Part shown: positions 1 through 61,958 of the stretch, piece after piece
Numbering within the stretch: position 1 is the first letter of the stretch
Layout: every line of letters starts with the position of its first letter
NCBI GenBank assembly: GCA_050084985.1
Contig: JBITNC010000001.1
Span: forward strand, 200,570,001-200,634,000
Direction: 5' to 3'
Source: Nageia nagi
Taxonomy: Eukaryota > Plantae > Pinophyta
DNA: 64,000 nucleotides
The notes under the pieces: model-generated
The model's database searches: none
Told to the model about the DNA's origin: nothing
Seen by the model: the letters and a program-made list of their open reading frames with translations, nothing else
Translations under genes and position numbers: made by a program

Positions 1-3000
1 TTATCCAAAATCATTTCCCTCTTTGGATCATAAGCCTTCTCTAAAAATAAAGGAAACCTTAAAGGAGCTAAAAATCATCTCCTCATCTCTAATTAAACCC
101 ATGATGGAGGTGAATGAGTTACCTCCTGTAACCTCCTCTCTGTTATGTACAAATCTTTAAGTACAAATTTTTTAATATCCATCATAACACATAATAATGA
201 CATCATAAAACATACATGTTTATGAATACAATTATGTTTTCAACATGTGAGGACTAAGAGGTACTTCATCATTTAAGACAGTTTTGCAGTCACAATACTC
301 TTTCATGGAATATTTGCCATTTTAATATATGGAATCTTTACCATATAAGTCATTCTTCTATGAATAAGTCATAGAATGTTTACCATTTAAATTTATAGAA
401 TCTTTACCATATAAATTATTCATTTTGAGAATTAGTTATGAATAATAACCACTAAGTTTTTAATTCATAATGCAATCCATCTATGGCTAGGAACCATAGT
501 ACACATCACACAATTATTTTCATTAGAATATCAATGATTGATTTGCACTTATTAATATTTCCCTTTTGAGTAAAGGATCTTAAATGAAATTGTTGGAGGT
601 CTCATATTGTCTGTGTTTGACTAAACTCTACCACAAATTCATGACATAGATTGGGTTCCAAAACTTAATGATTGTAAGTTATGATATCCTTCACTCTCTA
701 AAGGATAAACTAATCTTTCTAGATTAAGTTCATCGAACTTAAGAGTCATCCATATCTTAAAAGAGTATTATAAATAAAAGAATAAGGAGTCCCATTTACT
801 AATTATTATTTATTAGTCTAGGTTTATTTAGAGATTTTAATCAATAAAATATCATGTTCTTTTGAGGTTCCATTAGGATTTAAATGTTGATAACATGATT
901 ATTAGGTATTAGTTTAGAAAGCCTATAAATATATAAAATCATAGGTCAATTCTCAGCTACCAAATGCCTTTAATTTGATTGAGGTATTTTAGAGGAGGAT
1001 TTGATCAGAATACAAGAATAGTCGCTAACAATTTAGGGCTACCTCTTGTTTGCAATAGCTAAATCTTATCCATTCTCATATACTTAGAAAAGGATAGTAC
1101 TAATCTTTTATGCTTGGACTCTTAGTTCATAAAATTTAACTAGATCATAAACTTTTATTACAGATTATACTAAACAAGATTTACACTTATTAGTTAGATT
1201 ATAACATTTATATCAATTATCCAAAGAGTAAATACTAGGTGGAAGACCTTAAGGACTTTACAATAGTTTGGTTATAGTGAATGAATTATGCCTTACCACT
1301 ATAGATAAATTGAACTATTAAATAATCACCTAAACTCTAGCATTCTTAATGATACCAACATACACTAAGGTGCATTACAAGACTGTTCAAGCATTGTGAT
1401 TAATGAAATATAAAACTATTATATGAAAACATAGACTAATATTATCTAGTTTAATAATTCAATAGAAGTATAAAGTCTGTTCATTCAAATAAAATTTCAT
1501 TCACATGAATCATTCCGTGATGTTGTTGAAGTAGTCAATAAAAATTCAAGTAGACAATAGAATTTACAATGATTATCTATACTAACTTTCCAGATTGAAA
1601 GACTACAACATAAGAATTTACTGAAGTAGCTTAAGAATTATATCCAACATTCATAAAAAAACTTTCATGTATATGAACCAAATTCCTCTGTCTATTAAAG
1701 AGGATTTCAAGATTATACAAGTAATAGATATTCAATAAAGTAAAAACAAGTTATCTACATCCAAGATATAGACTAAACTACCTCTTATTCCACATACTTG
1801 ACAACTTAATAATTTCAACATATGAATGGAAATAACCAAGAAATATACATATACTTCAACTAATATGAATTTCCATATGGTATTTAAATAAACTTAGAAC
1901 AAAGTGTTTAAAACTTTACATTTATTATGAGCCTGAAACACAAATTTGTCCATAGCTTATCTTAAGTACACTGCAAACTAGAATAAAAATTCACAAAATA
2001 TTTATGTAGTCTGCTAATATTGAACTCTACCCAAGAGATAGCTTCATCATTTGATAAAAACTACATATTAGGTTCAAAATTAACCTTGATATAACAAAAT
2101 GGCCTAATGGGTGTTCGTCATATGTACAAAACTAAATATGAAAGATAAACTATAACACATAACTAAGTCACTCTTCCTCTAGCTCTTGAAGGTTCACTTG
2201 CAATTCAAATATAAGGGTGAGATTTCATTGAAACCTCAGTAAGGGAGATTCTCTAGCTTCTTTGCAATAGTCACTATCAGCATAAAATACTCATGCATTT
2301 AAATGTAGCATCATATCTTTTAAACTAAATATTTCAACAAGAAGGCATTCATAGTACACAATACATAAATATGAAAGAAGTTTATTGTTGTAAAAACTAT
2401 TATGTTTCCCTTTAAGTATGGTGGCTATAGTTTCAAACCCTCTAGTCCATTACTTATAGGTTCAATGTTCATGTAGTTGTATTGGGTTGAAACCATACTC
2501 TATAATAAGGAAAAAAGGTATTCCTTATAATGCATTCACCTATTCTTGACATCTAAAACCCTAAAATTTCTTACCTAATTTTTTTGATTAGTTTAAACAC
2601 TTGAATAATCTAGGAATGGATTCAGGTGATCCACATTAGCTTATTAATGTTGCTAGCTAGTCAGCACCCATATGGAAAGATTGGCTAAAGTCCAAATTAA
2701 ACAATTTTGATCAAATCTCTTCTGGTGTTCACTCCATAACACTCATCCTATTGAGGAGACATCTCATATGTGATCCCACCATTTCCACTTCATGAACTAT
2801 GCAACAGACATTTTATACATGATATATTGATTTCCTACTCGAGGCCCATATTACTCAAGAGAATGTATATCCACTAGGTTACATATCCTCACCCGATGAT
2901 AACCATCTGACTCATAAGAGAAGATAGTTTATCCTAGGCAAACTTCCTTGTGAGTAGGTAACATCATCGCCTATGGAATAGTCATCATACTCCTATGTGC

Positions 3001-3519
3001 TTAACTATAAGTAGTATGACTACTAAATTACCTTCACCTAGTAACCATAGTTTTATCAATTGCTATCCTCGTATGACACTTTATCGAGGATATGAGACAC
3101 TAGCCTACCCATATCTATTGGCTAGGCTCACCATGGAATCTGTCATCCCTATGCCCATATCTTAGGAATACATGGGTATTAAAATAAAACCCTCAAGTGG
3201 TTGGTATAGTCTAATTAACTTTAAGCAAGTGTATAAAATAGAAACCACCCATGACTTAACGAACTTAAGATAATTGATCCCAGATCAATTATTAAGTTCC
3301 ATGTTCATACTATGCATGAGATATTAAAGCAACTCATATTTTGTGTTTAAAATCAATAAGCAAAGTGTATGAAGGAAGACTCAAAACTTATTTAGGAAGT
3401 CACATAAGATATCTGGAAGTACTATAAATATCCCATATGCATGATACTACATAATTAATACTACTTTTAAAAAGTCCTCATATTAGTGTTTAGTAATGTG
3501 CCTTGAAATGACACTAAAG

Positions 3520-4808
3520 TTAGATATTGCCATAAAGGAAATACGGTGCGAAGTGGTCCATACTAAAGGAATATTCTTTTGGAATGTCATTGAGTGAGGG
3601 AGGTTCAACTAATGAATATTCTACACCATTTTCCTTCATTATCAAATCCATCCAAAACTCTCCTTTTTGAGTTGATGTTATCATACTAGGGTGTAATGTA
3701 AGCTATTCTTTAATTTGAACTTTGTCCTTTGTTGATAGACCCATCCTATATTTAGAGCCAAATTAAGGTTCACCATTGCACCCATGTCTTAATTTTAAAT
3801 GATTATTCTTAGTACATTATTAATTTTAAACATGCTACAAGATTTTGCACCTTCTTCTTAATGGTAAGTATCATTTACTAAGAAATATTGAGTGGCTAAT
3901 CCTTATCACTACTAGGCTATTTGATCCCTTTTTTGATACTCAAGGATTCCTAAATTCTTCTCCAATGAATTTGATTTATGGAAGAATACTTTCCTTCTCC
4001 ATAATATGGATTATATCCTTAGGTATCTTAAATTCATTATAATTATTATTATCTACTGATGGATTTCCTTCTATGTATTGGATCACAAATCTTCTAAGTT
4101 CCTATCAATATTTATTTGCAAGGATCAAAGAGTAATACTTAGGGTTTATTTTTATTGTGAAATGCCTTTTCTCTTTTATAATATGAAATACATCTTAGAA
4201 GTAGAGTAGGACAATGGAGTTTATCAATCACTATAAAATAGAGAATTATTAAACTCGTAGAGTACTAAACTTATCCCATCCCTTAATATTTATTTAAGAA
4301 ATGTTAACTTAGTAATGATCAAAATGATTTAATTTACTTGTTTGTTATTCATATTCTCATATTACCTTTTTTCTTCATGTGGTACTATAGTTCCTAATAT
4401 TTAAAAACAACTTCAAAAGATCACAATATAGAGTAAAGTATATCATATATCCACTAAATGAATCTTAAAGGTTTCCAAGAGGTTCTTTCAAACTTGTATT
4501 CCATTAAATTATTTCATGAAGATATTAAATACATTAAATGAGGACAACCCTTATTATTTTCAAGAGGGTTCCTTTACAATTTTTGATGAATAAATTACAT
4601 GGTGGATAAATCAAAACTTGTTTTAAAGAGTCGTCAATGCTTCTTTGGCTTTGATGTAGATTCCTCCATCTTCATCTTCAAACTTCTTCCAAGGAATAAT
4701 GGTGAGTGGATCAAGTACTAAGAAGGTTATAAGTTTGAGGATCATGACATCCCTTTTTTCATTTACAACCATGATGCAAATGAATCTAACTAAAATCTTT
4801 CCATTCAT
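3520..4808 (-). pseudogene. LTR-embedded degenerate ORF of unknown function (ORF-X), solo-LTR copy
   Basis: N-terminal ORF 4623-4808 plus a stop-interrupted frame ending ...NDIPKEYSFSMDHFAPYFLYGNI*. Peptide motifs shared with the element-B copies: KKG.(H/L)DPQ, PW(K/R), N(C/Y)KGTL, ND..KEYS.S. Confidence 0.5.
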
Positions 4809-5673
4809 TTAAACTCATTTTATAGACCTTAGGAGGATTTAGTCTTTTAAAGGATCACCTCTGTTCCTTAGTTGTGGGTAGAAATTTCAACATTTAATCA
4901 ATACAGTTTCTCAAATTATTTTACCATCATTAAAAACCAATTACCATTTAATAATCTATTATCCACTCTAGATAGATAATACTTCATCGTCTAAATTTTA
5001 TTAACTTTGGAAAAACTTTCTTTCCCACCTCATTTTAAAGTTCTTAAAAAATTCATTCTAGTAATGTATCAGAATTTCTACTATGACAATGAATGCAATA
5101 GTAATTAAAAACTATTAAATACACCTTGACCACATCATACTATATATCTTCCAAGGTTAATTTCTTACCATTTTAATTTATTTATAGGTTAATGAAACAT
5201 AGGCACACTATATAACCTATAACATAACTTTCATTAAACCTTAATAATCCTCTTCTTATACATTATACTAACATTTTACAATAATTAGTGTAACATAAAA
5301 CTCCATTAATAGAATAATTAAATCCTGGTCACCATCAAAACTCTTGTAACCCATGTAATCGAATTTTCTAAGGTAAACTGCAAGTAATTAGTCATTTTGG
5401 AGATTCATAATGTTGAATTTCAATAGTTTTCCTGAGATATTGTAGGGAGTTATCATTGCAAAGAGGTGATGTTAGTTTTAAATGTGTCTAATTAATTTTA
5501 GCTCTATATAGTGAAAGAAAAATCCAATATAGATCGGGTGATATCTTCCTTACTTTAACATTAGTTATTAACAACATTTTAATACATCACAGAAACTATT
5601 CCATCTTCTTAAGACCTAACAAGATATATTTAGCCATAAAATGTGTCTTATAAGTCCCATATAATTCTTATAG

Positions 5674-6400
5674 CGTAGTTGGTATGGAAAAATGTAGAGA
5701 TAAATAGGAGAGGGAATCATATGCAAAATGATTTTTTTGAAATTTAAGCAAATTCAATGGTCAAGTGTGAAGCTAAACTCTACAACCTTTGTCAGAATTC
5801 TTTTGGCATGAGCCACCACATGAGCTCGAGAAGGAGATATGGAGGTCCATAAAAGAGTAGTTGAAATGGTTTCACATCAAATGTTGAGGTCAAGAGTGAC
5901 TTAATACTAGTATATGCAAAATGTAGAAGAGTATGTATGCTACAAAGAGAGTTTCATTGATAGGAATGATTGCAAAATATGCATAAGATAGATTTTCTGA
6001 GAAAGCACTAGAGGTGTTTAAGTAGACTCAATGATCAGGCATATAGCCAGGATCTGAAATCTTTATCAATATTTTTTTGACATGAGCCATCATGGGAGCT
6101 TGAGAAGAAGATATGGATATTTACCAAAGTGTATTTGAAATGGTTTCTCATTGAATATTATGGTGTGAATGCCTGATATGTAAAACTATACACAAAGTTT
6201 AGGAATTGTTTAACCATAGGCATGTTTTATGGACTACAATGATCGCAAGATATGCAAAAAGTGGTCTATATAAAAAGGCATTTGGGGTATTAAATAATGC
6301 TCAAGAGTAAAGTTAAATGCTGATATCATTGCCAATATTTTTCCAACATGGGCCATCATAGGAGCTCTCAAATGAACTTTGAAATCTGTTGGGAAGCATG
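5674..6400 (+). pseudogene. PLS-class PPR gene fragment inside the solo LTR
   Basis: Translates KQIQWSSVKLNSTTFVRILLA*ATT*AREGDMEVHKRVVE..VYAKCRR..MIAKYA*DRFSEKALEVFK, matching the conifer PPR consensus KQMQLAGVKPNSTTFASILPACAKMGALEQGMEIHQ..MYAKCG. About three motif sets with stops and frameshifts. Confidence 0.85.
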
Positions 6401-9039
6401 GGAGAAAGACTAAGGAGAGACTTAAAATTTTGCAAGTAAATTTCATGAGCATACACAAAAAGGGGAGTTGTCAAATCAACTAAATAAAATAGTAATAGGC
6501 CATAGGAGTTTGTACTTGAATCCTTCCCTTCAATAAATTTCAAATAAACAATATAATAAGATATACTCCTTTCAAAAGGCAAAAAGTACCAATTATCACA
6601 TGTAGTATATTAAATAAACTAGGTAGCATGTCCTTTCAAATGGAACAAGGCCTCTATCAATAATTAATTTAATAAGCCTTTATCAAGTAATACTTCAGTA
6701 CAACATGTTAAATAGCATCAAGTAAGTCTACTTCTCTAACTAGGCATTTTATCTTTAATGTCTAAAATGCAAAAGAATGCACCTGGACTTGAAAGAGGGA
6801 GAGGCTTCTCTTCTTCATGTAACTCTAGACCCAAATCTTGAGAATAATAATAATGAGATAGTATATAATTTTTTTAATATTCCACCTCTTTATTTATAGC
6901 CAAGGAGGTTCAAATATATCCAAATGAACATCTACTCATCCCTTTAATAATTTTTTATGGTAGGTATCAATAAAGTTATTGATGAGAGTAGGGGCATTAA
7001 ATAATTTGGACAAATTTTATATTAATTAATAAATTAAGGCCAATTATTTTCCATACCTAATACAAATAAACAAAATAAGTAGGGTCATATCTCAATTATT
7101 TTCATAAACCATTAAATACATGTAACATCCACAAAGTGAACTTAGTCCTTTTTGACTATTTTTTATTTTAATTTTCACTTTAGTTTACTAATAACTATAA
7201 GTAAAAATTTGAATTCAAAAGAAGGGAATGTTCCTTGCCCTCCCTTTTCAAATTTAAAATGCAAAAATTCACAATAGGAAGTCAATCACATATTTTACTT
7301 GTGATGGTCACCTCATTCTGCAAGATAAATTATTAATCCATACACACATCCACAAATAGACATTCATTATGAAAATCAACATTCATGACTAATTATTCTA
7401 CCATATAACTACATGATCTATGATGGTCATGAGGGTTTTTTAGTGAACCAATGCCAATCATTTCCTCACTCTTATCCTTTTATTTCTATCACAAATTCAC
7501 TCTTGGTTCCTTGGGTCTTTTTTTGCACTTTCCATTTCAATTTAACCTATGACCTGTGTCAAAACATATTGAAGCTAGAATCAAATTTACATAAATAAAG
7601 CATATCATTATTCAAAACTTATCATTACATGGCATAATTCAAACTTAATTTAATTTGAATCCTCTATAGTGCTCGAGTCTTAACAGTGCAATTAGGTGGT
7701 TCATCACATTCTTTCTTAGTTGTATCTAGGGTTTTACAACAAAACTAAAATAATACTTATTTCGAATTTAATTACCACACATAGAAGTAATCTTTAAAGT
7801 AATTACAAAACTAACATACTTAGAAAATGCACATGTTATATGCTAAACATACTTCAAAATGTAATATCAAATAATGTAAATAGTTTAAACACAAACCCTA
7901 CAACTATAACTGTAAAGTATAAAATGCTCATACAATAATCATATATTCAAGTGTATGCTACAATTGACCCAACATAGAAGATAAGGAATACTCCACTTAT
8001 AGGTAATTTAGGTGCAAAAAAATTTAAAACCAAACTAGTAGGTAAAATCACATATATAGGCATCCACAATAAAGTGAATACTCCTTTTGCTACCCAAATG
8101 CCCATGTCAAAAGATGCTTCCAAGGTAAATAAGATAGCTCCTTCAAATATGGGTTCATTCCCACCATCAAGGTGAATGGAAACTAATAAGATTCCACCCA
8201 TACTACCTCAATATTTGTTGAAAAGTGAGGAGACCCCATGGTTTCAAATAAATCTCCATCAAAATCAATGCCACTAGGGATTATGATCACTATTTCAATA
8301 GAGGTTATGCTAAGTTCTTTGCAAGCACCTCTAAGAATGATAGGGGAAATAAAAAGAATCCTACAAATTCAAATCCACTATCAACCATGATGATAGGGTA
8401 CCAACATACTATGAATCTAAAATAAAACCTTAATCTCCACACTCGAGAAGTTTCCTCAACCACTCAAAAAAGTGAAGGAATGTTCTGGAGAAGCTTAAAT
8501 TCTAAGTTTTTCAATGAATTGTAGATCCTTCTCCACCTAGCATTCAATGCATCATTTTATGAAACCACCACTAAACCAACATTTTTAAGGGAATGTTTTT
8601 TTTATTCCTATACTAACACTTAATAAGTAATAGGAGACTTAGCCAGTTCTAGCCATCACTTATACTAAGCTAATGTATTGAGAGGGAAAGGAAATGTTTA
8701 ACAAGTATAGATTAGTTTAGGGTTTAAAAGGATTTGGAATAGTTTAGGTTAGGTTTTAGTTTATTAATTTAAATTTCCATATTTTCCTTAGTATATTGAT
8801 CTAACATTTAGTTTTTTTTAAATTACAGGTTTAATAAAAATAAGGATGTTACCATGGCTGGTTACACCTTTCCTATCATTAATCTAATTTAATCATAATT
8901 AAACTCTACAATTAGCCATGATAAAAGTTAGAACCTTATTGAATAACAAAAATAAAATAATCAATAAGATGAAAGAAAATATTCAATGACATATTCCCCC
9001 TTTGGAATGAACTCAATCTCATGAGTTTGATTGTTCTAG

Positions 9040-44350: not shown

Positions 44351-47300
44351 AGTTCTACAAAAGCATGAGGTGTATTGATTTATCATATCACTTTTCTTAG
44401 AGATGCCTTCATAACAATCTATTCATATTCCAAGAGAATGTAAAAAGAATAGAGATTAGTAGGTTTTGAGATTATTACAATAATTAAAATTCTACTGAGC
44501 TACAAGGAATTTCATCAATTTCTAAGTTTACTACACTATGGGAAAATTCATCAAGGAAGAGTATTGCTAGGATCTAAGAAGATGATTTAAACATGTAGCA
44601 CCGCTAAGCTTTGAGAGTTATCTTTCATTAAATTGCTACCATTTTGGATGCCTCTAAAATATTTTAAACATGTTAAAGTATAAAGAAATTAATAAATAAT
44701 CTCCATTCTTAATATAAGTTGTTATTTCTATAACATTATGCCCTCTTTTATAGTTATTATAAAGAGTTAGAATAGTTAGCAAATCGTATAATAAAAATTA
44801 AGCATGTAACATGCATTGGTAGGATGGGATGGAAAAGACTCTAAATAAATTAAAAAAAAAAGTCTTTATGTATCAATTAGTTAGAATATTAACCACTTAC
44901 AACTCAAAAAGATATTTTTGATATGTATTGAAATAAAACATTGAACTAACTCACTTTTTTACCATACTTTTTTTATGCTTTTAAATCTATCTCCACTTGT
45001 GAGCCTTTTTCCAAATAGTTTTTTTGATATGTCATGTGATGCTTAAAAAAAGATTAGTAATGGGAATGTAAGTTTATGAGGAAGGAAGGAAAGAGAGAGG
45101 AGAGCAAAAATTACAAAAAAAAGAATCACGAGTGTGAGAAAATGAAGACTCTAGTTATATCGAAGGAGTTTAATGAATGATATGGGTGGCTTATAGTGGA
45201 CAAAATGGGGTGGATAATGACATATATTCATAAGATAATTACTAATCTAGCTTACAAGCTTCACATAATATATTTACTTCCTTAGGTGTACTTTGATCTT
45301 TATTCTTAGATGTTCTAATACTTCCTATGCATTGGCCATTTATAGGTAAACTCACACATATTTGTTTATGATCTCTCTTAGTAATGAATCTCAATAAAAA
45401 TGGTTTAAACAATTCTTAATTATTCCTAACTAATTCAGAGCTAGTGCTATCTATACTTTTTTTTCTCATCAATCTTATCCTACCTAATTAAGCAATCTCC
45501 TTTTATATGTGATTAGTTGATATTGAATCTAAATACAAATCAATAACCTCTATGAAAAACTCTTTTGATCTATCTTTAAATTAAATTTTCAAGAAAAAAT
45601 ATATTGAAGGAAACTTTATCATTGAAATATGTTTGTATAATAACCAAAATTCTAGAATAACTCTTTTGATAAGGAATATTATAGTTAATATACATGATAG
45701 TAATCAATCAAGTACAATAATTTGAGATATTAGATACTTTATCATGAACTAATGATAAATAGCTTCTTGGGATTGTAGGACTTGAAAAATAATGGTAAAT
45801 ATCAAAGGCTTATCCATAAGATATAAACATTTTAGGTATGCCCCCTAGTATTACCAAATATCTACCTCTATATTTTAAAAATATAGTTATTTACTCATAT
45901 CGACACTTTCTAATGTTTGATGATCATTCATATTTCTAAGGGTAATTTTATAAGGTCTTTTTCAACATAATGAATAAATATTAGGATCTTACCTTAGAAA
46001 CTAGAATGTACAAAATTAGGCAAGGGTTGTATAGATGTATCTTTGTAGGAACATCCATTTTGTGTAACTTTTTTAGTTAGATTCAAACATGTATACTTAG
46101 ATTAAGATAAGTTCAAAATACATTGGATCTATTTTAGATTGGATCTTTGAATATGTATTCCATAGCTAGTAGCATCTTAATAAATAACCATTTTAAACAT
46201 AGGAACCTTTTAATATTATCTTTATTATTCCAACATTCTGGTATCATAAGATGACAATCATCCTTTTAAGATAGGATTAAACCATCACTTAATATTTTTG
46301 AGGTCATGAATATTTATCAAGAGAACCTTGACATTATCTCACCCCCAAATATTATAGGTCCATGAAAACCTTTCTTTTTAAGAATATTTTTCATATTAAT
46401 AACTTTTGAGTCATATTTACTAAGTGTTTTGTTGAACTTCTAACATTTTAAAATAAATTTTCTTATTCTTCAAATTTTGAATCTTGAATTGATCAGCTCA
46501 CAAATAAATTTATCTAGTATATGCATTGATGTTACCAAATTTATCTTTGAATAGATATAAAATGTATTTCTTATAGTCATGTGTTTTAAGCTACCACTTG
46601 TTTCCATCTAACATTTTTCACCTATTATTGACTTCACAAACCTAAAAATTGTAGACCTATTTTTTTGTTTAGTTTAAATACTTGAATGGTCTAGGAATGG
46701 ACAAGGTAATCCATATGAGCATGTTAATGCTACTAGCTAGTCAGCACTCATATTGTAAGATTGTTCAAATCTAGATTAACCAATCCTAATCATAATCCTT
46801 TTGGTGTCCACTTCTCAATGCTCATCCTATTGGAAGATACCATGTAGTTGACCTCATCATTTCTATTCATGAACTATGCAACAAATATTCTGATCATGAT
46901 GTAGTGGTTTCCTACTAGGGAACCATATAAACTAAGAGAATGCTCATCCATAATATTTTGCATCTTATTCAATGATAATAATTAAATTCATAGGTTGCAA
47001 AAAGATTATCCTAGATACTTTTCCATATGAAATGAGTAAGTGTCATCACCCATGGAATAGTCATCATAATACTATTTGCTAACTATAAGTAGTATGAATA
47101 CTAGTTATCTTCACCTAATAACTATAGTTTTATTGACTAATATCCTCATTTGACAAACTATCAAGGATATGAGAAACTAGCTTACCCATATCTATTAACT
47201 AGGTTCATAATGAAGTACAACATCCTCATGCCCATATCTTGGGGAGCCATGGGCATTGTAATAATACCCTTGATTGGTTGGTATAGTAAAATAATGTTTA

Positions 47301-47630
47301 AGAATGATTAGATATAGACCATAACTAAATATAATATTCCTATATATAATTTATTCTAGATCAATTATTAGTTGTATTTAGGTTTTTATGCTTGAATTTA
47401 AGCATCAGGATGTCATTCTAATCTATTTATTTTCAAAAAAACTATCACATTTTAAAATATGTTTGATAATCAAAGAACTAATTTCATCAAACATGTGCAA
47501 GAAGTTTTAAACAAATTTATTCAAAAAGTAACTAAAGTATATTCAATAGTACTTTACTATAATTGTCTCATATACATAGTGTGATAACATAAAATATTAA
47601 TTTAAAGGTACTTCACATGCAAGGGATTAT

Positions 47631-48700
47631 CTAAAGACAACTATTTATAACAAGGAAGTGCAGCATAGAGTATTTCATACTCAAGGAATATTCTTTTTGC
47701 ATGTAATTTAGTGAATGAATGTTTGACTAAGTCATATTTTATGTAAAAGTCCTTATCATTAGTCAATCCATAATTTCTTATCTTACTTTAATGTAGGCTT
47801 ATTGATCAATCTTAGTATAAAGTTGAAATCTAATTATTTATCTTCTAGGATTTTGGATCATTTAAGAACCTTAATATTTTGTGTTATCTTGAGCTTAAGT
47901 ATCAATGGCTTTATCATCTTATTTATATCAATTATAAGTAATTTCTTTAGAACCTTCAAGAATGTATAATTTCAAATACAACATCATCATTTACTTATCA
48001 TTTATTATAATTAAGAAATGTTTAATATTTTTGAGCCCTTAATGTTCGACCTATTTATGAAGTACAAAAGGATTCATATTTCACCATAATATTATTAGGT
48101 TTGGAAAATACATGTAGTACATATTACTTTGTTATCAAGTACCTAATTTCATATAAGCATATTAGATATTTTGTCCCATTATTTAACTGATTCCCCAAGA
48201 TATCATTGATAATCATAAAAATCATTATATATTTATTTAAGAACATAATATAGGGTAGAATAAATCAAGCTTGATTCTATATTATCATAATAAATTACTT
48301 AAGGATACTAGGTTATCTTATTTATATCTAGATTATCACTTATTTACATTTATTTTCCAAGGTTTATACCTCAATGATGTCATGTCATACCTTAAATGGT
48401 TACATGATGATATTAATCTACAATGGATTTGGGTAACCCTAATTATACATCACCATGTACAATACATTTAATCACATGAGGATTACATTATAATTATCAA
48501 GAGTATTTTCATCATAGTCTTGTCAAGATTTGGTATAAGGTTCTTCAATACATATTTATTCTTTTGGTAAAGTTATTTGCTATCTTAGGATCCAAGGTTC
48601 ATTGGTGATAGGTACTAATAAAGGCCTTTGAGTATTGAGGATCAAGATAGCCCTTTTTCTTGACCAAAATGAATCTTACTCTAAATGCATCATAATCCAT
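47631..48700 (-). pseudogene. ORF-X copy in the 3' LTR of B
   Basis: Starts MDYDAFRVRFILVKKKGYLDPQY; near the end DYMQKEYSLSMKYSMLHFLV; homologous to 3520-4808. Confidence 0.45.
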
Positions 48701-49039
48701 TTCTAAAACTAAAATACCCTATTTATGTATGTTAAGAGGTTTTATGTTCTTTCTAGAATGACCTCCCTTCCTTGGTCTTAGGGTAACATTACAACTTAGT
48801 CATGTTATCTATTAACTTCACATTAATCAATTTCATCTCAATAGTACTAAAATCAAATACAATACATGCCTTCCCATAATAATCAATTCCTAATATGATA
48901 ACATTAATCAAAATCATCACATAAACTTTAATTTTTGATTGCTAATTATAATCAATTATAGTATCTATTTTGAATTAAACTAAAAAGGTTATATATATAT
49001 GTATTATCAAATGTAAACATTTAAATGAAAGAAAGATTT

Positions 49040-50910
49040 TTAGGACCATTTTGATGAGAAGGCCTACTAATTATTTGTCAAAATACTCTATAGATATGCA
49101 CATAAACAAATACATTGAAAGAGGACTACGAATTATTTGACAAAATGACTCATCTAAAAGATCATCATAGGTACCATAAATACCACATAATATATAAATA
49201 AAAACCTATGAGTGGATTAAAAAATGCCTCCTTGCAATGCATTCCTATGGATCATAACATATATAATGAGTACATGGAAGGATATATGAATTATTTGATG
49301 AAATGCCTCACCATATGCAATGCAATGATAGTGCCTTATCAATAAGAATACTATTTGTCAAAATACTTTATAGATATGCACATAAACAAATACATTGAAA
49401 TAGGACTATGAATTATTTGACAAAATGACTCATCTAAAAGATCATCATAGGTACCATAAATACCACATAATATATAAATAAAAACCTATGAGTGGCTTGG
49501 AAAAATGCCTCCTTGCAATGCATTCCTATGGATCATAACATATATAATGAGTACATGGAAGGATATATGAATTATTTGATGAAATGCCTCACCATATGCA
49601 ATGCAATGATAGTGCCTTATCAATAAGAATAAATTAGATTCATTGAAGGGATTTGTGAATTATTTATTAAAATACCTAATTGATATGCACAAAAATGGAT
49701 ACATTTAAAGAACTTGCAATTTAAAATGCCTCCTCAAAATGCAATCTTATGATCTATAATGCATGCTAATAGATACATTGGAAGGACCTATAGATTGTTT
49801 AACAAAAGGCCTCCTTGATAGCAATCTCATTGTTTATAATGATCACATGATACACACTAAAATGGATATATTGGGATAACATGCATATTATTTGGAAAAA
49901 TGCCTCATTAGAATATAAGATATTCATAAATTAAGTGAAAATAATCTTCTAATCAAAATACAAGATAAGCACACATGACTACATTAGGAGGCCCTATGAT
50001 ATGTTTATTTTAATTCCTCATTGAGATATAAAAATATGTTCATAGTTATGAACCATAAGTATGTTAGAAGGATATATGATTAGGTTGACCAAATTGCCTC
50101 ATCAAAATATCACCTTAAGAGCCACAATGGTTGCTGAAGTGCCCAATACAATGGTTGCAAGTGGTTTAATAAAATGCTTCATTAAAGTGTAGTATCAAGG
50201 ACATAATTATATATAAGGGATATGTTAAAAGGATATGCAAATGGTTATACAACATGATTCATCATAATATGATTTCATGGACCTCAAAAATAAGCACAAA
50301 CAAACATATAGGAAAGGTATACAAATGGTTGACAAAATGCTTCATTGTAATGTAATACTAAGGGTCAAAATGGTGTATATAAAAGAATATTTGGATGAAA
50401 TATATGACTATTTTGATATAATGAACCATAAAAGGTAATCTCATGAGTGTAATAAGCATAAAATATGCATAGGAAAGACACATTGGGAGGATCGATAGGT
50501 TGTTTGATAAATTTACTCTTTGACATACAACCTTGAGGGAAAAATAAACACAAAATGGATGCATGGAAAGACATATGAATGGTAAATATAATATATCTCA
50601 TAATTAAGAGTCACAAACATACCCAAAATGAATACAATATATGGATATATAAAAAAATGTTACCTCTTCCAAATAATATTTAACCATGGTAAAGTTCTAA
50701 ATGCAAGGTGCATGTCAACATATATCCCAATACAATTTATTTGTTTTGCCTCAAGTACTATGTACAAAGCAAATGGATTCACATACATTCAGAAGATCAT
50801 GGATTTAATTTGTCCCATACTTTCTTTGCATACATGTATGAAAAATATATACAACCATTCACATGCAAAGGTATCAAATAACTACTAATAATATGCCTCC
50901 TCAAGGTAAC
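49040..50910 (+). pseudogene. PPR-derived repeat array in the 3' LTR of B
   Basis: More than 12 degenerate units of gatatgcaca.aaatggatacattgaaaggcctatgaattatttgacaaaatgcctcat, corresponding to GYAQNGYIEKAYELFDKMP; also ISWT-like and QMQ...FICF-like remnants. Confidence 0.75.
49072..49631. repeat. 280-bp near-perfect tandem duplication
   Basis: 49072-49351 and 49352-49631 differ at only a handful of sites; single copy in the other LTR. Confidence 0.95.
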
Positions 50911-52029
50911 ATTAATGTAGAGCTAAAAAACTCAATTAGTATTATAACAAACTTTTAAACAAGCATATCTCCTTCAAACATGCTAAAGTAAAATTAAATA
51001 AAATTCAAAAATTAGCTAAGCATTTTAGTATTAATATCTAAAATGCTAGGAAGAGCATCCAGACTTAAGAAGAGGAAGATTCTTCCTTCATGTCCCACTA
51101 GAATAATCTTGGGAGAAAAAGAGATGTATTTTCCAATGTTCACTCACCTATGTATTTATATCCAAATTTTGGTATAATATATCCAAGAAATTGTGGTAGG
51201 ACTTAGGCAATTTTGTTTGTAAGTGTTATATCCTACAAAATAACTTGGACACTTCATATTAGGCTACAAAATATTTCCAATAATTTCATACAATTATTAT
51301 AAGAAAATAAGTTGTGTGGGTATGACTTCTCTATTATTTTTGCAAAACTCAAAAATCACCTTGCAACCTTCATAAAATGAAAACAAATCCTTTTAACCCT
51401 AAATTTTTATTTTCACCTAAATTTACTAAAATTCCTTGGTGAAAATTTAGCTTCAAATAGTTGGAATATTCCTTACATAATTTGCAAATGGTTAATTAAT
51501 TTCCTAATCAAATTCCAAAATGAATATCATATTTTTAATACTCATATTTAACTATGATGAGACCTCATCCTATAAGGTAAATTTGTTAGTGCACATACAC
51601 ACATAAAAACTAGACACAATATCAAAATTGAATATTATGCACAATAATTATGATTTGCATCTATATGATCTACGAATATCCTTATGTATATTAATGAATA
51701 CATACAAATTATTTTCTCACTCTTAGAAATCCTTTCCCATTCCAACTCATGCTTGGTTCCTTGGGTCTCTAACCTAACTCCCTCCCTAAGTCAACCTATA
51801 ACTTGTGTCAAAAAATTCTTGAAGCTAGTATCAAGTTGACATAAATAATGCATATATATGTTCATAGTTAATCATCTCATAATATATATAGTCTTATTCA
51901 CTTTCAAATTCTCAAAAGCATTCAAGTCTTAACTAGTGCAAATTAGATGGGTTATTACATACTACCCCCTTAAAAGGAACACAGTCCATTATGTTCTTAA
52001 ATACAAACCATAAAGTTTAATAATATTTG

Positions 52030-55000
52030 ACATATTCACTTAAACAAATAAGGAAATTATCTTTTCATGTTTGATTCATCTTCCCAAGTGGGAGATAATT
52101 CAAAATACTTATCCCATTGAACAAAACATCCATTAATCTCTTGGCTTCTTAATTTCCTAGTTCTGAAAGATAAGATTTTAATACAAAGAACTTCAAGGGC
52201 TTGAGGGTCCAACATCTACAAGTTAGAAAAATTCAACATATGAGAAGGGTCAATAATATGCTATATTAATAATGAGACATGAAAGACATAATGAATTTTT
52301 GACATACTTGATGAAAAAGTAAGTTTATAAGCAACTAGACTCTTTTTCTTGACTATTTTCAAAAGGATCAACAATCTAGGGATCTAATTTGGTATACTTT
52401 ATGGTACTTTTCATGGGTTAGGATTGTAAAAATTATTTTTTTACCAAAATAAATTCTTAAGGAGTTCTCTTAAGATCAACATAACTCCTTTATCAATTGA
52501 TAGCTTCCTTGAGTTTTTTTCTTATGGAATTAGGTTTATCCTCCATTTGCTTTAACATTTTAGGATGGATCATCACCCGATCCTCTTGATTGTTCTAAGA
52601 TATAGGAGTTTTGTATCTCCTTATATAAAGAGATTCAAAGGGGACCATTCCTAAATATGAATGTTATCCATTATTATAGACAAAATAAACTAAATAGAGG
52701 TAGTCCTCCAATTTAGTCTTTAATTCCATGTAGTACATTTTGAGCATATCCTCAAGAACATTATTCACTCATTTCGTATGTTTTTCTATCTCTAGATGAT
52801 AAGATAAACTCATGTCCAATTTTGTTCCCAATGCCTTATGTAATAATTTCCAAAATGTGAAGGTGAATTTTGAATCCCTATCCAAGATGATCACCTCTAG
52901 AAATCCATGTAATCTAAATATTTCATGAAAAAACTTATTTTTCACTATAGGGGCATTATCAGTGGTATTTCTAGGTATAAATTGTACTACCTTGTTTAAT
53001 CTTTTAACTACTACTAATATTAAGTCATGATGGAACCTAATTTTTAGAAAACCAATAATAAAATCCATTAAATTTACCTACTATTTCTTTTTGGGAATAT
53101 CATATGGATATAGATATTCTCTTGGATGTTGATGTACTGGTTTTACCTTCTAACATTAAAGACATCTAGTCACAAATTCTTATATATCTCTTTTCATGCC
53201 ATCCCAATAAAATTTTTCTTTTAGGTCCTCTCTCATTTTTGTACATCTTGTATGTGCTGCATATGGGGGACAATGGTCTTCTTGCATGAACAAACTTCTT
53301 AGATTACCTTTTTCTAGAATGACTAATATGTCCTTAAAGTAAAAGATTCCATCATGTTCAATAAAATCTTGGGATAATGGGGTATCCTTGCCTATCAATT
53401 ATTGAATAAATTTACAATATGGATATTCTTGCTATAAAATAATCACTTGATTAAAAAAATCAAATTGAATTCTTGTCATGGCATTGAAATGCTACATATG
53501 ACTTAGGTAATCTACTACCTTACTCTCTTTTCCTTTAATGTGTTCAATGCCAAAGTTATACTTAGGTAAAAAATCCACCCATTGCCTTTATTTGGCATTT
53601 ATATCTAACTAAGTGAACAAATACTTCAAACATTGATGATGTATTTCAAGTTTGAAGGTCTTTCCCAAAAGATAATGTCTCCACATATTAAGTGCATGGA
53701 CTATAACTACCAACTCAATATCATGAGTTGATTAATTTAGCTCATGAGTTCTCATTTTATTGGATTAAAATGCTTTTGGTTTTCCATTATATGACAACAC
53801 AACATCCAAACCTTTCAATGAAGCATATGTACATACTAAAAAATCACCATGTGGGTCAGGAATGGTGAGAATATGTTTGATAGTGAGACTTTCTTTCAAA
53901 TTTGTAAAACCTTTCTCATATTTTTATGTCCACTTGAACAACTTATTCTATTTCTGAAGACTCATGATAGTATTGGATATTTTTAATAAATCCTTGAAAA
54001 ATATTTGATAATATATGGCTAACCCCATAAAACTTCTTACCTTATTCACATATGTTGGTTTAGGCCAACTAATTATTGCTTCTACTTTCTTTGGATCAAC
54101 TGAGATTCCATTTATAGAGATGATATGGCCTAGATACTAAATTTGTGAGGCATAAAATTCATATTTTGATAACTTTCCACATAAATAGTTTATTCTTAAC
54201 ATTTGTAGAGCCAATATTAGATGATAGTTATGCTCCTCCTCATTTCTTGAATATATGAGGATGTTATAAATAAATACCAAAATAAATTTACTAAGGTATT
54301 CTTGATACACACTATTCATAAATTCATGAAAGATGCAGGGGAATTAGTTAACCCAAAAAGTAATACCACAAACTCATATTACCCATACCTAGTTTTGAAA
54401 GCTACTTTATGAGTATTTGAACTCTTGATCCTTAATTGGTGGTATCCCAAGCTTAAATCTATTTTTTGAAAAGATAACAACATCCTTAAGATGAACAAAC
54501 AAATCATCAATCCTAGGTTATGTATACCTATTTTTTATGGTAACTTTGTTTATCATCCTATAATAAATACATAATCTTAGAGTACCATATTTCATTTTTA
54601 CAAATAACACTAGAGTGCCCCATGGTGATACACTAGGTTTTATTAATCCTTTTTCTAAGAGATCTTGAAATTGTGCCTTCAACTCTTGCATCTCAATAAT
54701 ATTCATTCTATATGGAGTTTTAGAAATAGTCTTCACTCCAAGTACTAGGTCTATTGAAAATCAAATTCTTATTTTGGGGGTAATCTTGGTATATCTTCAA
54801 GGAATACATCCTTGTATTCTCTTAACAAAGGGTACTTGTTTAGTAGTTCTACCTCCTTATCTTCTTATTCTACCTACTTAACTTTAATTGCATAAATCAT
54901 ATCCTTTTTTCTTATACTTCTTTTAACTTGGATAGCTATGATCAAGTAAGACTCAAAAGGTCCTTGATCATTGTATACCCTATATTGGGTTTAAGACACC

Positions 55001-56600
55001 CTAGTGTATTCCACCCATCTTTCTTGAAACTCAATTAGAGCTTTATGATCCATTAACCAATCCATGCTTAAAATAATGTCATAAGAGGCTAAGGGGACCA
55101 AATACAAATCCCAAATAATAAATCACTTAGGTAATTATATTTCAACATCCCTATAACATTATCTAATAAGATACTTTTTTCTAGACCCAAACTCTACTTG
55201 CCATCCATTTGTTAAAAATTTTGGTCCCTTAAGCATGTCTTTAACTAAGGAATTTTAAATCAAACTATCTATAGCACCATAATATATCAAAACCCTAAAA
55301 TATATATCAAATATTTTACTAGGGGTTTGAAGAGTTGTGGCTTGTCCTCTAGTCTATGCTAATCTAATAGCTACAAATATATGATGTTCTTTAAACTAAT
55401 CTACCTTTAAAGGACAATAATTTGCATAGTGAGCTCCACTGCAATTCCAACGTCTATATCTAGTACCCTTTTTATTTTTTAATTTTTTTTTCTTAATTAG
55501 TCCTTTTATCTTAAAATACTTAGCTATGGTTCTTATAACCTTGGCTTCCATTCCTAGGGTTATAATTTTATTTATAGAACTATTGATTTTTCCTCTAAAA
55601 ATTCTTCTTATTATTATTTTTATTCCCAAATGGCCTTTTCTCAAACTTGGGTGGGTTACTATCCTTATAACCATGATTATTATCCTTGATATTCTTACTA
55701 CTTGAATGTTGTGCTTGATGTTCTTCACTTTTATTCTATTGGTAAATTTCCTTATCTTTTTCATCAGAAGACTATAGTGTGTAAGGGTTTTCTACATACC
55801 AAAATTTACCTAAGGTCATACACTTCTTCAAGAATTTTTTGGGCTTAATACATTCACCATGGTATTGATATTAAGGTCTAATCCAACAAGAAACCTATGA
55901 ACCTTCACATGATTCTTATGTTCAGGAATATATTTGAGTATTCAAATAAATTTTGATGATAGCTTTGGACACTCATGGATCCTTGTTACAAGATATAATA
56001 TTATTCATATTTTCTATCATAATAGATTTGGGGAATGAATCTTTTGTGAAATGCTACAAAAAAATATAGGTACTTTATATATTAGATCCCATACTTAGTA
56101 TTGTAATCATTCCACCATTCTAGTGCAATATCCTTAAAGTTGTAGTTAGCCCATACAATTTTAGTTTTTAGAGATAAGTTTTTCATTGAAAAGTATGTCT
56201 CTACTTATTCTAACCATAATTTAGTTTGGTCATCATCTTGTTTACCATTAAACTTTAGGATCTAAGATTTCTTAATATCTGAAGCAGGTTCTTGTTCAAT
56301 CCTTTCCTAAATTTGGTCATTTGTCCCTTCATGCCTTGCTTGTTCTGGAATAGATTCTTCCTATGGAGGTTTAACCTATGGATTCAATATATTATTGATT
56401 GTTTCTTATTTTTTTCCACTTTCTCTTAACCTTATTATGGTTTCTTAACCTTCATTATTTTAAGTTGAACAACTTGTAAAACTCTCATTTTCATTATTAT
56501 TAGGTGCTCTTCTATTGACATTCCTCATTATTTTGTTCCTTGTATTTTGACCCCAAATATTTCTTCTATTTTCCCTCACATTATAATTCATAGGGAGACC
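52030..56600 (-). pseudogene. Element B gag-pol (degenerate)
   Basis: Knuckle RWNCSGAHYANYCP; protease VLIYYGAIDS; [28 protein letters not shown] and VFIYNILIYS; integrase HCPPYAAH..C and MDFIIGF..ILDRDSKFT; chromodomain FVQWDKYFELSPTWEDE. Confidence 0.92.
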
Positions 56601-57850
56601 ATTCCATATACCTTATTATAGGTTTCTTGAATCTCTTATTACTTGTATTAGAATTTCCATAATCTAAGTCCACAAAATGGTATTTTCATTAGGCTCAAGC
56701 ATACTCATCTCAACTTTTTAAACTCTTATAGCAAAAGAGTCATGGAACAAAGGCCTGAGAGTTTGAATTTGATTCTCTAATACTAATGTTAAGCTACCAT
56801 TTATTTTCATGTAACATTTTTCACCTATTATTCACTTCACAAACCCTAAAATTTTATACCTTTTTTTTGTTTAGTTTAAACACTCGAATGGTCTACAAAT
56901 AGACAAGGCAATCCATATGACCATATCAATACTACTAGCTAGTCATCACTCACATGGAAAGATTTTCCAAATTTGGATTAACTAATCCTAATCATAATCC
57001 TTCTAGTGTTCACTTCTCAATGCTCATCTCATTAGAATACTCCATGTAGGTGACCTCACCATTTCTATTTATGAACTATGCAACAAACATTCTAGTCATG
57101 GCATAGTGGTTTCCTACTTGAGGTCCATATCACCCAAGAGAATACTCATCCATAATTTTATGCATCTTGTTTAATGATAAACATTCAATTCATATGTTGT
57201 AGATAAATTATCCTAGATAATTTTACATATGAAATGGGTAAGCATCATCGCCTATGGAACATTCATCACACTCCTATTTTCTAATTGTATGTAGTATGAC
57301 TACTAGTTATCTTCACTTGATAACTAAACTTTATAGACTACTATCCTCATTTGATAAATGATTGAAGATATGAGATACTAGCCTACCCATAACTATCAGA
57401 TAGGCTCACCATGAATTCTAAAATCCCCATGGCCATATCTTAAGGAGCCATGGGTATTGGAACAATACCCTTGTGTGGTTTGTATAGTATAATAACTTTT
57501 AAGTATGATTATATATAGACCATACTCAAATCTAACATTCCTAGATATAATTGATCCCAAATCAATTATTAGTTTTCTTTATATTTTTATGCTTATGTTT
57601 AATCATCAGGATGTCATTCTAATATATTTCTTTTCAATAAACCAACTATCACATTATAAAATATGTTTGATAAATAGAGAACTAATTTCATCAAATGTGT
57701 GCAAAATATTTTAAACAATCTTATTCAGGAAGTCACTAAATAATATTCAATAGTAATTTACTATAATCATCCCATATGCATGGTGTGACATACAAAATAT
57801 TACTTTAAAGGTACTTCACATGGCCAAGATTATCAATCCCTAAGATATCA

Positions 57851-58923
57851 CTAAAGATAACTACTTATAACAATGAAGTGCAATGTAGAGTATTTTATAC
57901 TCAAGGAATATTCTTTTTGCATGTCATTTACTAAACAAATGTTTAACTAAGTCATTTTTATGTAATATTCCTTATCATTAGTCAATAAATAATTTCTTAT
58001 CTTACTTTAATGTAGGCTTCTTTATCAATCTTAGAATAAAGTTGAAATCTAATAATTTGTCTTCTAAGATTTTAGATAATCTAATAACCTAATGTTTTGT
58101 AATAGCTTGAGCTTAAGTATCAATGGATTTATCACCTTATTTATATCACTTCCAAGTAATCACTTTATAAACTTCATGAATGTATATTTTCAAATACAAC
58201 ATCATCATTTAATTAATGTTTATTTTCATTAGGAAATGTTCAATATTTTTGAGCCCTTAATGTCCTACCTATTCATGAAGTACAAATGATTCACATTTCA
58301 CCGTAATCTTAATAGGTTAGGAAAATATATGTAGTACTTATTACTTTTTTATCAAGTACCTAATTTCATATAAGCATATTAGATATTTTTTCCTATTGTT
58401 TAACTAATTTATCATAATCATACAAATTATTATATATTTATTTAAGAACATAACATAGGTTGGAATAAATCAAACTTGATTCTACATTATCCAAATAATT
58501 ACTTAAGGATACAAGGTTATCTTTTTGATACCTATATTATCACTTATTTACATTCATTTTCCAAGGCCTATACCTCAATGACATAATTTCATACCTTAAA
58601 TGATTGCATGATGATATTAATATACAATGGATTTGGGTAACCTTAATTATACATCATCATGTATGAGATATTTAATTACATGAGGGTTCCCTTATAATTA
58701 TCAAGGGTATTTACATCATATTATTTTCAAGATTTGGTCTAGGGGTATTCAATACATCTTTGTTCTTTTGGTGTAGTTGTTTGCTATCTTCACCTTTTAT
58801 GCTCCTCCAAGGATCTAGGGTTCATTGGCAATAGATACTAAGAAAAGCCTTTGAATATTGAGGATCAAGATAGCCCTTTTTCTTGACCAAAATGCAACTT
58901 ACTCTAAATGCATCATAATCCAT
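57851..58923 (-). pseudogene. ORF-X copy in the 5' LTR of B
   Basis: MDYDAFRVSCILVKKKGYLDPQYSKAFLSIYCQ*TLDPWRSIKGED..DNYKGTLM...NDMQKEYSLSIKYSTLHFIVISSYL*. Confidence 0.45.
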
Positions 58924-59115
58924 TTCAACAACTCAAATACCCTATTTATGGACCTCTTTTCCTTGGTCTTAGGGTAACATTACAATTTAGTCATGTTATA
59001 TATTGACTTCACATTAATCAAATACATTCCATGCCTTCCCATAATAATCAATTTCTAATATGATATCTAATTATAATCGATTATAGTATCTATTTTGAAT
59101 TAAACTAAACAAGAA

Positions 59116-59181
<66 letters not shown>

Positions 59182-59239
59182 TAACTCTCCATTCCTTTTC
59201 TTTATTTTATTGAATGTAAAAATTTAAATGAAAGAAATA

Positions 59240-60740
59240 TTTTTAGGACGATTTTGATGAGAAGGCCTACTAACTATTTGTCAAAATGCCTTATAGAGAT
59301 GCACACAAATAGATACATTGAAATAGCCCTACAAATTATTTGAAAAAATGCCTCACTAAAAATATTTTCATAGGTACCATAAAGACCATATAATATGTAA
59401 ATAAAAACCTACAAATGGCTTGGAATGATCTATGAATTATTTAACAAAATGCCTCACCATATGCAATGCAATGATAGCACCTTATCAACAAGAACAAATC
59501 AAATTTTTTGAAGGTATTTATGAATTATTTTTCAAAATGTCTCATTGAGATGAACACAAATGGATACCCTAAAAGATCCTAGAATTTAAAATGCCTCCTC
59601 AAAATGAAATCTTATGATTTGTAATGCATACCAACAGATACATTAGAAGGACCTATAAATAATTTAACAAAAAATCTCATCAATAGCAACCTCATGGTCC
59701 ACAATGATCACATTATATGTACTCAAATTGATATGTTGGGAGAACATGCATATTTTTTGGCAAAATATCTAATTAGAATATAGGATATTCAAAAAAAGTT
59801 AAGTGAAAATGATATTCTTATAAAAATGGAAGATAAGCATACATGACTACATAGGAGGCCTCTTGATATTTTTTTTTAACACCTCATTGAGATATAAAGA
59901 TATGTTTGCTATTATGCACCACAAATATGTTGGAAGGATCTATGATTAGGTTGATCAAATTGCCTAGTCAAAATATCACCTTAAGGTTCACAATGGTCAT
60001 TGATGTGTCTAAATGGATATGTGGGAAGGTCTATGAGTGGTTTAATAAAATGCTTCATCTAAGTGTAGTATCAAGGCCAAAATGGTACATAAGGGATATG
60101 TTAAAAGGATCTAAAAATGGTTAGACATAATGCTGCATTGTAATATGATCTCATGGACCTCATAGACAAGCACAAATAGATATATAGGAAAGGCCTATGA
60201 ATGGTTGAAAAAATGCTTCGTTGTAACATGATACCAAGGTTAGATATGGTGTATATGAAAGAATATGTGGATGAAATCTACAACTAATTTGATATAATGC
60301 ACCATAAAAGGTAGTCTCATGAGTGTGATAAGCACAAAATATGAACAAAATAGATATGTTGGGAGGACCAATAGCTTGTTTGATAAATTTACTCATTCTC
60401 ATGCAACCTTGAGGGCACAATAAATAAAACATGGATGCATGGAAAGACTTGTGAATGCTAAAGACAATATATTTCATCCTTAAGAGTCACAAATATACCT
60501 AAAATGAATACAATATATGGATCTATAAAAAAATACCTCTTCAAAATAGTATTTTACCATGGTAAAGTTCTAAATGCAAGGTGGGTGTTAACATATGGCC
60601 CAATATAATTTATTTGTTTTTCCTCAAGTACTATTTAAAAACAAAATGGGTTCATGTATATTCACAAGAACATGGATTTAATTTGTCCCATCCTTTAAGG
60701 TATCAAATAATTGCTAATAATATGCTTCCTCAAGGTAAAA
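59240..60740 (+). pseudogene. PPR-derived repeat array in the 5' LTR of B
   Basis: YELFNKMPH; ATSWSTMIT; KWICGKVYEWFNKMLH (ORF 59906); NMISWT. Confidence 0.75.
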
Positions 60741-61958
60741 TTAATGTAGAGATAAATAACTCAATTAGTATTATAACAAAATTTTAAACAAGCATATCTC
60801 CTTCAAACATGATAAAATAATATCAAATAAAATTCAAAAATTATCTAAGCATTTGGAATTAAAATCTAAAATGCTAGAAAAAATACCTGGACTTAAGAGG
60901 AGGAAGATTCTTTCCTTCACATCCTACTAGACCAATATTGGGAGAAAAAGAGAGATCTTTTCCAATGGTCACTCACCTAGGTATTTATTGCCAAATTTTT
61001 TATAATATATCCAAGAAATGTATCTATTTTTCCAACTCCTATATTTTTTTTGTGGGATGGAGATTTTTTTGTGTGGTAGGACTTAGGTAATTTTGTTTGT
61101 AAGTATGATATCCTACAAAATAATTTGAATACTTCATATTAGGCTATAAAATATTTCCAATAATTTCATACACCTATCATAAGAAAGCAAGTTGTGTAGG
61201 GATGACTTCTATATTATTTTTGTAAAACCACAAAATAACTTTGCAACCTTTATAAAATGACACCTAATCCTTTTAACCTTAAATTTTTATTTTCACCTAA
61301 ATTTACTAAAGTTCCTTGGTGAAAATTTAACTTCAAATAGTTGGAATATTCCTTGCATCATTCAAAAATGGTAAATTGATTTTCTAATCAAATTGTAAAA
61401 TACATATCATATTTTTAACACTCATATTTACTTATGATGACCCCTCATCCTATAAGATAAATTTGTTAGTACACATACACACATAAGCACTAGATATAAT
61501 ATCAAAATTGAATATTATATACAATAATTATGATTTGCATCTATATGATCTATGAATATCCTTATGGCTCTTAGTGAATCAACACAAATCATTTTCTCAA
61601 TTTAACTAATCTATTCTCATAACTTACCTATCCTTGGTTTCTTAGGTCTCTAACTTGACTCCCTCCCTAATTCAATTTGTAATGTATGTCACAAAAGTAT
61701 CGAAGCCAACATCAAGTTGAAAAAAATAATGCATATATCCATTCATAGTTAATCATATCATAATATAAATAATCTTAATCACTTTCAAATTCTAAAAAGA
61801 ATTCAAATTAGAACAAGTTCAAATTGGGTAGGTTGTTATATGATGAAGCCAATCTCTTATGAATACTATGTGAAATCATCCCACTAGGCATGCTAGAAAT
61901 AGACTATTGATCCAAAAAATGAAATTTGGCTCTATCTTGCAAATAGTGTCAAGGTGTC

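Follow-up and report, generated by a model that had tools for sequence, protein, structure and literature searches.

Antisense PPR gene fragments within the long terminal repeats of a conifer retrotransposon, probably a chromovirus

How does a piece of a host PPR gene come to lie, antisense, inside both long terminal repeats (LTRs) of a retrotransposon, and does it do anything there? The question is raised by a stretch of 64,000 nucleotides of Nageia nagi DNA (contig JBITNC010000001.1, positions 200,570,001 to 200,634,000 of the forward strand), referred to below as the window. The original prediction placed PPR repeats in both LTRs of a chromovirus, here called element B, and proposed that they might shield the element from silencing or supply PPR-directed siRNA.

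What kind of element is B? Self-comparison of the window gave direct repeats at about 46582-51960 and 56787-61841, within and around which we placed the following features.

46577..46581, no strand: left target-site duplication TCATG; the right copy, TGATG at 61841-61845, is identical at 4 of 5 positions
46582..51959, minus strand: 3' LTR of element B, 5.4 kb, start TGTAATAACCC and end ACA on the element strand
51960..51972, minus strand: polypurine tract adjoining the 3' LTR, as read from sequence
51973..56700, minus strand: decayed gag-protease-RT-RNase H-integrase-SH3-chromodomain region, from Pfam, with many stops and frameshifts
56775..56785, minus strand: initiator-Met-like primer-binding site adjoining the 5' LTR
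56787..61840, minus strand: 5' LTR of element B, 5.05 kb

The order gag-PR-RT-RH-INT, the two LTRs, the primer-binding site, the polypurine tract and the 5-bp target-site duplication (4/5) are those of a Ty3/gypsy element. In the internal region Pfam returned RT_RNaseH_2 (9e-19), Integrase_H2C2 (8e-12), RVP_2 (3e-8), RVT_1 (6e-6) and Retrotrans_gag (4e-5); the Chromo match lies at its expected place after SH3_Tf2-1 and is below the cut-off (E = 0.018; 15.4 bits vs 25.1). At 9 of 11 positions the primer-binding site agrees with the initiator-Met motif. A segmental duplication in place of LTRs is argued against by the primer-binding site, the polypurine tract, the target-site duplication and solo copies with the same ends. 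Judged from these sequence features, element B (46582-61840, minus strand) is a full-length, long-dead Ty3/gypsy element, probably of chromovirus type. TATA-like motifs did not serve to place the U3/R/U5 borders of its LTR.

Aligned end to end, the two LTRs are 85.3% identical over 4873 columns (K2P 0.165), and CpG and CHG are nearly lost from the element (observed/expected 0.02-0.19). If conifers mutate at 2.2e-9 per site per year, B would have inserted roughly 35-40 My ago, an uncalibrated figure. LTRs of about 5 kb, a TGTAA start and a Met primer site presumably fit Tekay, and a Tekay-like lineage is likely from LTR size and termini. The Tekay/Del chromoviruses of Neumann et al. (PMC6317226) resemble B in domain order, in having a seed-plant host and, if the sub-threshold Chromo match is genuine, in a chromodomain placed after integrase; the extra ORFs described there run to at least 250 codons, whereas B carries a non-coding relic within its LTR. 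Elsewhere in the window, repeat pairs of 78-85% identity (143-1020/11620-12512, 7893-8989/12513-13621, 23450-24178/31167-31899 and 43086-44336/62761-63984) are probably the LTRs of other nested elements, and 9000-11500 resembles, by eye, a gypsy integrase/RT remnant.

Is the sequence inside these LTRs really derived from a PPR gene? The two cassettes are:

49050..50600, plus strand: cassette of PPR origin in the 3' LTR, with some 18 degenerate units of S type (93 nt), frame-broken and running antisense to the element
59250..60480, plus strand: PPR-derived cassette in the 5' LTR, about 14 units, orthologous unit for unit to the 3' LTR copy

A frameshift-aware profile, built on 354 31-aa motifs taken from 120 named PPR proteins, scored 36.0 and 35.7 bits in the left LTR and 44.2 and 36.9 bits in the right, on the plus strand only; the controls reached at most 18.4 (30 shuffles), 15.3 (reversed DNA) and 15.0 (minus strand). 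Another profile, at the DNA level, was derived from L002, a PPR fragment that lies outside LTRs; it is not fully independent, since L002 had itself been retrieved by a 23-nt motif taken from the window. It gave 18 matches at 49054-50571, 10 of them below E=0.01, and 14 at 59256-60456, of which 6 were below that value; the reversed window gave a single match, at E=9.6. A chance AT-rich repeat as the source of the signal is excluded by the shuffle and reversal controls. We conclude that the cassettes of B derive from the S-motif array of a PLS-class PPR gene. The predicted location in both LTRs, on the plus strand and antisense to the element, therefore stands well above controls by both profiles. 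As to the predicted size of 1.5-1.9 kb, the left array does measure about 1.5 kb; the right one is about 1.2 kb, and an end at 50910 is some 300 nt too far. Scraps of the motif quoted in the prediction are legible (YELFDEMPHH, NMISWTS), but its quoted form is idealised. A (CT)n(AT)n microsatellite, at 59117-59180 of the window, lies directly left of the 5' LTR cassette and is much shorter in the 3' LTR.

How far is this array from a gene? Pfam found no family in 9 of 9 raw frames of B's cassettes, nor in three stop-free stretches; a PDB sequence search with the cassette gave no match, and a protein database search with one raw cassette frame gave none among 453 candidates. With tblastn, the 120 PPR proteins did not rise above controls on B's cassettes (best E=0.005 vs control 0.018). 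The check by PPR HMM or tblastn that had been suggested thus succeeds with a frameshift-aware profile and fails with plain Pfam and tblastn. The cassette region holds no ORF of at least 120 aa; a continuous frame, as a functional PPR gene would have, is lacking, and the frame-breaking deletions are common to both LTRs. A coding PPR passenger gene in B was rejected on the same lack of a reading frame. What is present, in B, in the solo LTR and in locus L003 (both described below), are the 31-aa/93-nt S-type repeats or P-L-S triplets of a PLS-class PPR fragment. Gymnosperm PLS-class PPR editing factors (Ginkgo Gb_08671, Cryptomeria At4g02750-like) have the same 31-aa S motifs and P-L-S triplets. 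Unlike them, the cassettes are fragments without E/DYW domains, and those of B are without a reading frame.

If the cassette was copied with the element, in what state was it copied? The spacings between units common to both LTRs are 62, 88, 135, 93, 194/195, 80, 83, 84 and 91 nt; five of them (62, 88, 80, 83 and 91 nt) are not multiples of 3, so that the frame is broken. For 8 of 9 right-LTR units the best match is the positional partner in the left LTR (the partner of the ninth fell outside the 75-105 nt length filter), which bears out the claim that the cassette was replicated within the element. Within one LTR the units are about 55% identical, as against mostly 75-85% to their partners in the other LTR; most of the decay therefore preceded insertion. 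Because the frame-breaking deletions are common to both LTRs, B was copied with a cassette that had by then become non-coding cargo.

Nor has it been better conserved since. The K2P distance between LTRs is 0.19 in the cassette vs 0.155-0.157 in the flanks, and the two cassettes retain 3 CHG of 51.8 expected, a depletion equal to that of the flanks. One later change is plain:

49072..49631, plus strand: 280-nt tandem duplication within the 3' LTR cassette, 97.9% identical, absent from the other LTR

Its absence from the other LTR places this duplication after the insertion of B, and the cassette of B keeps changing through tandem duplication and deletion.

Do other copies of the family carry PPR sequence? 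One related copy lies in the window, and a scan of metagenome contigs with the 23-nt window motif gave four loci (L001-L004). The features needed here are:

2526..7708, minus strand: solo LTR of a related subfamily, flanks TTCCT/TTCTT, a near-perfect target-site duplication; the end block has 73-76% identity to those of B and L003
5680..6375, plus strand: PPR piece in the solo LTR, P-L-S triplets with no S-run, in the same orientation and LTR region as in B
46600-47400, 56800-57600 and 2526-3320 of the window, and 1081-1880 of L003: conserved block at the LTR 3' end, from similarity between subfamilies

Two of them, L001 and L003, match the LTR of B. At 1081-6754 L003 has a complete LTR, around which no target-site duplication was seen; its PPR content is an S-run and the beginning of a P-L pair. 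In L001 the right LTR block and an S-run are present. L002 and L004, identical in alignments and translations, hold a PLS-type PPR fragment without LTR match. Two of three distinct metagenome loci with the S-motif pattern, a small sample, are thus within the LTR of B's family. Viral contigs gave no match for two patterns; three matches in prokaryote genomes (L005-L007), none of which fits the PPR DNA profile or the LTR blocks, were taken as chance.

PPR sequence is present in 5 of 5 LTR copies (B twice, the solo LTR, L001 and L003), in the same orientation and beside the same right-hand LTR block, so the cassette does recur in other family copies, as predicted. The solo LTR was detected via flank similarity, L001 and L003 via the PPR motif, which leaves the solo LTR (1/1) as the sole unbiased test of presence. 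Its PPR piece is matched by Pfam PF01535 at E=1.6e-7 and by tblastn at E=2e-21, with 40% identity to a Cryptomeria PPR. Between subfamilies the conserved block of about 800 nt at the LTR 3' end, in which Pfam finds no family, is 73-78% identical vs 53-68% in the middle of the LTR. In the 3' LTR of B the conserved end blocks lie at 46600-47400 and 50700-51959. The content of the cassette varies: B and L001 have an S-run, L003 has one together with a P-L start, and the solo LTR has P-L-S triplets. At its left junction the cassette does not align from one subfamily to another; at its right junction B, L001 and L003 can be aligned.

PPR remnants are also found outside this LTR family. In the window, 38100-39250 (minus strand) holds P-L motifs followed by an E-type-looking motif as a tandem repeat of about 152 nt, and the LTR family of element B does not flank it. 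On the 6.8-kb contig of L002 (L004 alike) two truncated PPR fragments, at 818-1540 and 4616-4888, lie in opposite orientations.

Is the cassette of L003 in the same state as that of B? It has a 116-codon open frame that matches PF01535 at E=2e-24; the best relatives of the frame are PPR proteins of Ginkgo, Cryptomeria and Taxus, at no more than 56% identity to the Ginkgo proteins, and a near-length protein search returned one distant match. (Among the 120 PPR proteins, those of Cryptomeria are closest to the frame of L002.) These relationships point to a gymnosperm host, probably a conifer. The L003 units are 82% alike, and four group together. CHG stands at 19 observed against 22.1 expected in the cassette vs 12 against 72.1 in the flanks (p=7e-6); neither the corresponding CpG contrast (p=0.1) nor that of CHG for the solo LTR (p=0.19) reaches significance. 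The share of 21-mers within 3 mismatches of the L002 PPR pieces is 3.4-3.9% for B's cassettes, 27% for L003 and 0% for the flank control, all lower bounds, since L002 is not the donor and one non-LTR PPR locus was compared. Because the cassette of the B lineage was already old when B inserted, the fresh cassette of L003 points to re-acquisition or selection, unless decay runs at a very different pace in the host of L003. The differing content, together with the nearly intact, CHG-retaining cassette of L003, suggests that the PPR slot has been renewed. A decayed LINE-like region, judged by eye from open frames, adjoins the LTR at L003 6760-9800.

Might there instead have been one ancient PPR capture, an S-run followed by P-L-S, of which the subfamilies lost different parts, L003 being an early-branching or slow-mutating copy from another species? 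The cassettes of the solo LTR and L003 end at the same L-motif point and continue into a similar stretch of about 10 nt, and the right flank is common to B, L001 and L003. Beyond the L-motif point, however, likeness is marginal (10 of 200 shuffles reach the score), and in L003 the flanks and the neighbouring LINE are CHG- and CpG-depleted whereas the cassette is not. We regard a single capture as unlikely.

Two further possibilities concern the array itself. A separate PPR-bearing non-autonomous element, Pack-type or Helitron, could have inserted in the LTR of a master copy: L003 has at 4575-5350, directly after its PPR piece, a 775-nt block as rich in CHG and CpG as the cassette, and PPR scraps do occur in other contexts. 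Yet in none of the four copies tested is the cassette flanked by significant inverted or direct repeats (44-169 of 200 shuffles do equally well), nor do the terminal inverted repeats or target-site duplication that mark Pack-type cargo bracket the PPR sequence; such an insertion is very improbable. (The 775-nt block itself matches no Pfam family and, among representative proteins, only a 29-aa identical peptide.) Equally improbable is co-option of the array as a cis element of the LTR, whether a spacer or tandem repeats of enhancer-like kind, for which homology to PPR genes would be immaterial. The tandem-array behaviour, with duplications in B's 3' LTR, and the deletion and stop that units in L003 have in common would suit it, but the units of B, at 55% identity to one another, are not homogenised, and content varies among subfamilies.

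How, then, are the fragments best explained? We consider it rather probable that this chromovirus lineage carries antisense PLS-class PPR fragments in the middle of its LTRs as cargo, broken in B, likely neutral and likely replaced repeatedly. Fragments of host PLS-class PPR genes sit antisense in the variable middle of the 5-kb LTR, a region that may tolerate insertions and so receive them, and were copied along with element B when already broken. Capture and renewal may have proceeded through homology- or microhomology-driven DNA repair or through template switching; for the antisense orientation, a DNA-level route or an antisense transcript would fit better than a switch onto PPR mRNA. The replacements would come from abundant host PPR sequences, and the PPR scraps outside B's family (window 38-39 kb, L002) indicate that donors are plentiful. 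Several points sit less easily with neutral cargo. The end blocks of the subfamilies differ by 22-27%, and yet slot and orientation stay the same, a regularity beyond what drift by itself would lead one to expect; L001 and L003 come perhaps from another species, with other decay rates; renewal draws mainly on one copy, L003; and no donor gene was found.

What would such a cassette do in a living element? All LTR sequence passes through the genomic RNA of a retroelement, so that an active copy would carry antisense PPR RNA. To this extent established retroelement biology makes the predicted antisense transcript inevitable, although on the neutral-cargo reading it would be a by-product, and siRNA cross-talk would be possible only while the cassette is fresh. 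In selected host mimicry, by contrast, the antisense array would be kept or refreshed since siRNAs against it would also strike essential organelle RNA-editing genes, tempering silencing, or it would feed PPR-directed small RNAs. The constancy of slot and orientation in all five LTR copies would suit this, as would the fresh cassette of L003, with its 27% of 21-mers close to an unrelated PPR fragment. PPR genes are indeed miRNA targets and sources of phasiRNAs, in spruce, according to the portions of PMC4651229 consulted, and a conflict model has been published for maize (10.1101/777037). But the lineage of B still transposed despite a heavily decayed cassette. The consulted part of the maize work reports no copy-number gain, and its authors rate the advantage to the transposable element (TE) under their shield model as not fully convincing. 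In Platycladus, epigenetic conflict is likewise proposed, but capture-bearing TEs have no methylation advantage in the sections of that study seen (PMC13477047). A shield or siRNA role is thus unsupported at this locus: the cassette of B had lost its frame before insertion, its divergence is no slower than that of its flanks, and 3-4% of its 21-mers lie near L002. In B, a dead element, the cassette has diverged too far to have any effect; for the lineage as a whole, selected mimicry seems to us unlikely.

How much of this is new? According to the same sections of the Platycladus study, conifer Ty3/gypsy elements carry exon fragments, with some 400,000 captured fragments per gymnosperm genome; these captures, gene fragments inside such elements, resemble element B, but its sections 12 and 16 describe no family-level cassette within LTRs. 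The word 'pentatricopeptide' is absent from its main text, and that word, PPR and PF01535 are absent from two supplementary files; its BLASTN cut-off, given as 1e-40 in the text seen, would likely miss the cassette of B. The published model of camouflage and siRNA cross-talk, in the extract consulted, is the idea of the original prediction, with the proviso that antisense captures may trigger RNAi more readily. Captures in Sireviruses are put at 3% of those elements in the extract available, whereas in B the piece is part of the LTR, doubled per insertion and left in solo LTRs. The template-switch chimeras BARE-2 and Veju, in the excerpt of PMC13317346 used, are like B in that foreign sequence enters an LTR element, in BARE-2 the LTR itself, and is spread by a subfamily; the BARE-2 insert comes from another retrotransposon and that of Veju has no named origin, so that neither is a host PPR fragment. 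The consulted parts of PMC2996948, PMC5846777, PMC7602945 and PMC3762812 have nothing on a PPR cassette in LTRs, and matches to 'PPR' in the latter two are element names. A full-text search of mainly open-access literature, judged mostly on titles and the openings of abstracts, found no description of a family-level antisense PPR array inside an LTR. Published work already covers both the capture of gene fragments by TEs of conifers and the idea of an siRNA shield; a PPR slot that is antisense, borne in the LTR, present at family level and apparently renewed seems to be a new form of this.

What would follow for the conifers and for this family? It is conceivable, if improbable in our judgement, that a chromovirus lineage of conifers maintains in its LTR a slot reserved for antisense PPR sequence, which it has re-armed repeatedly, for tens of millions of years, by drawing on PPR genes of the host. 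Were this so, each active copy would transcribe RNA complementary to essential organelle RNA-editing genes, and its own silencing would be tied to the PPR small-RNA network of the host. Even if neutral, a PPR piece borne in an LTR doubles with each insertion and persists in solo LTRs, and a single family could in this way scatter PPR pseudogene fragments in large numbers and raise the PPR counts of conifers. On one LTR backbone some subfamilies bear a fresh cassette and others a decayed one, which makes the family a natural experiment for the disputed idea of camouflage by capture.
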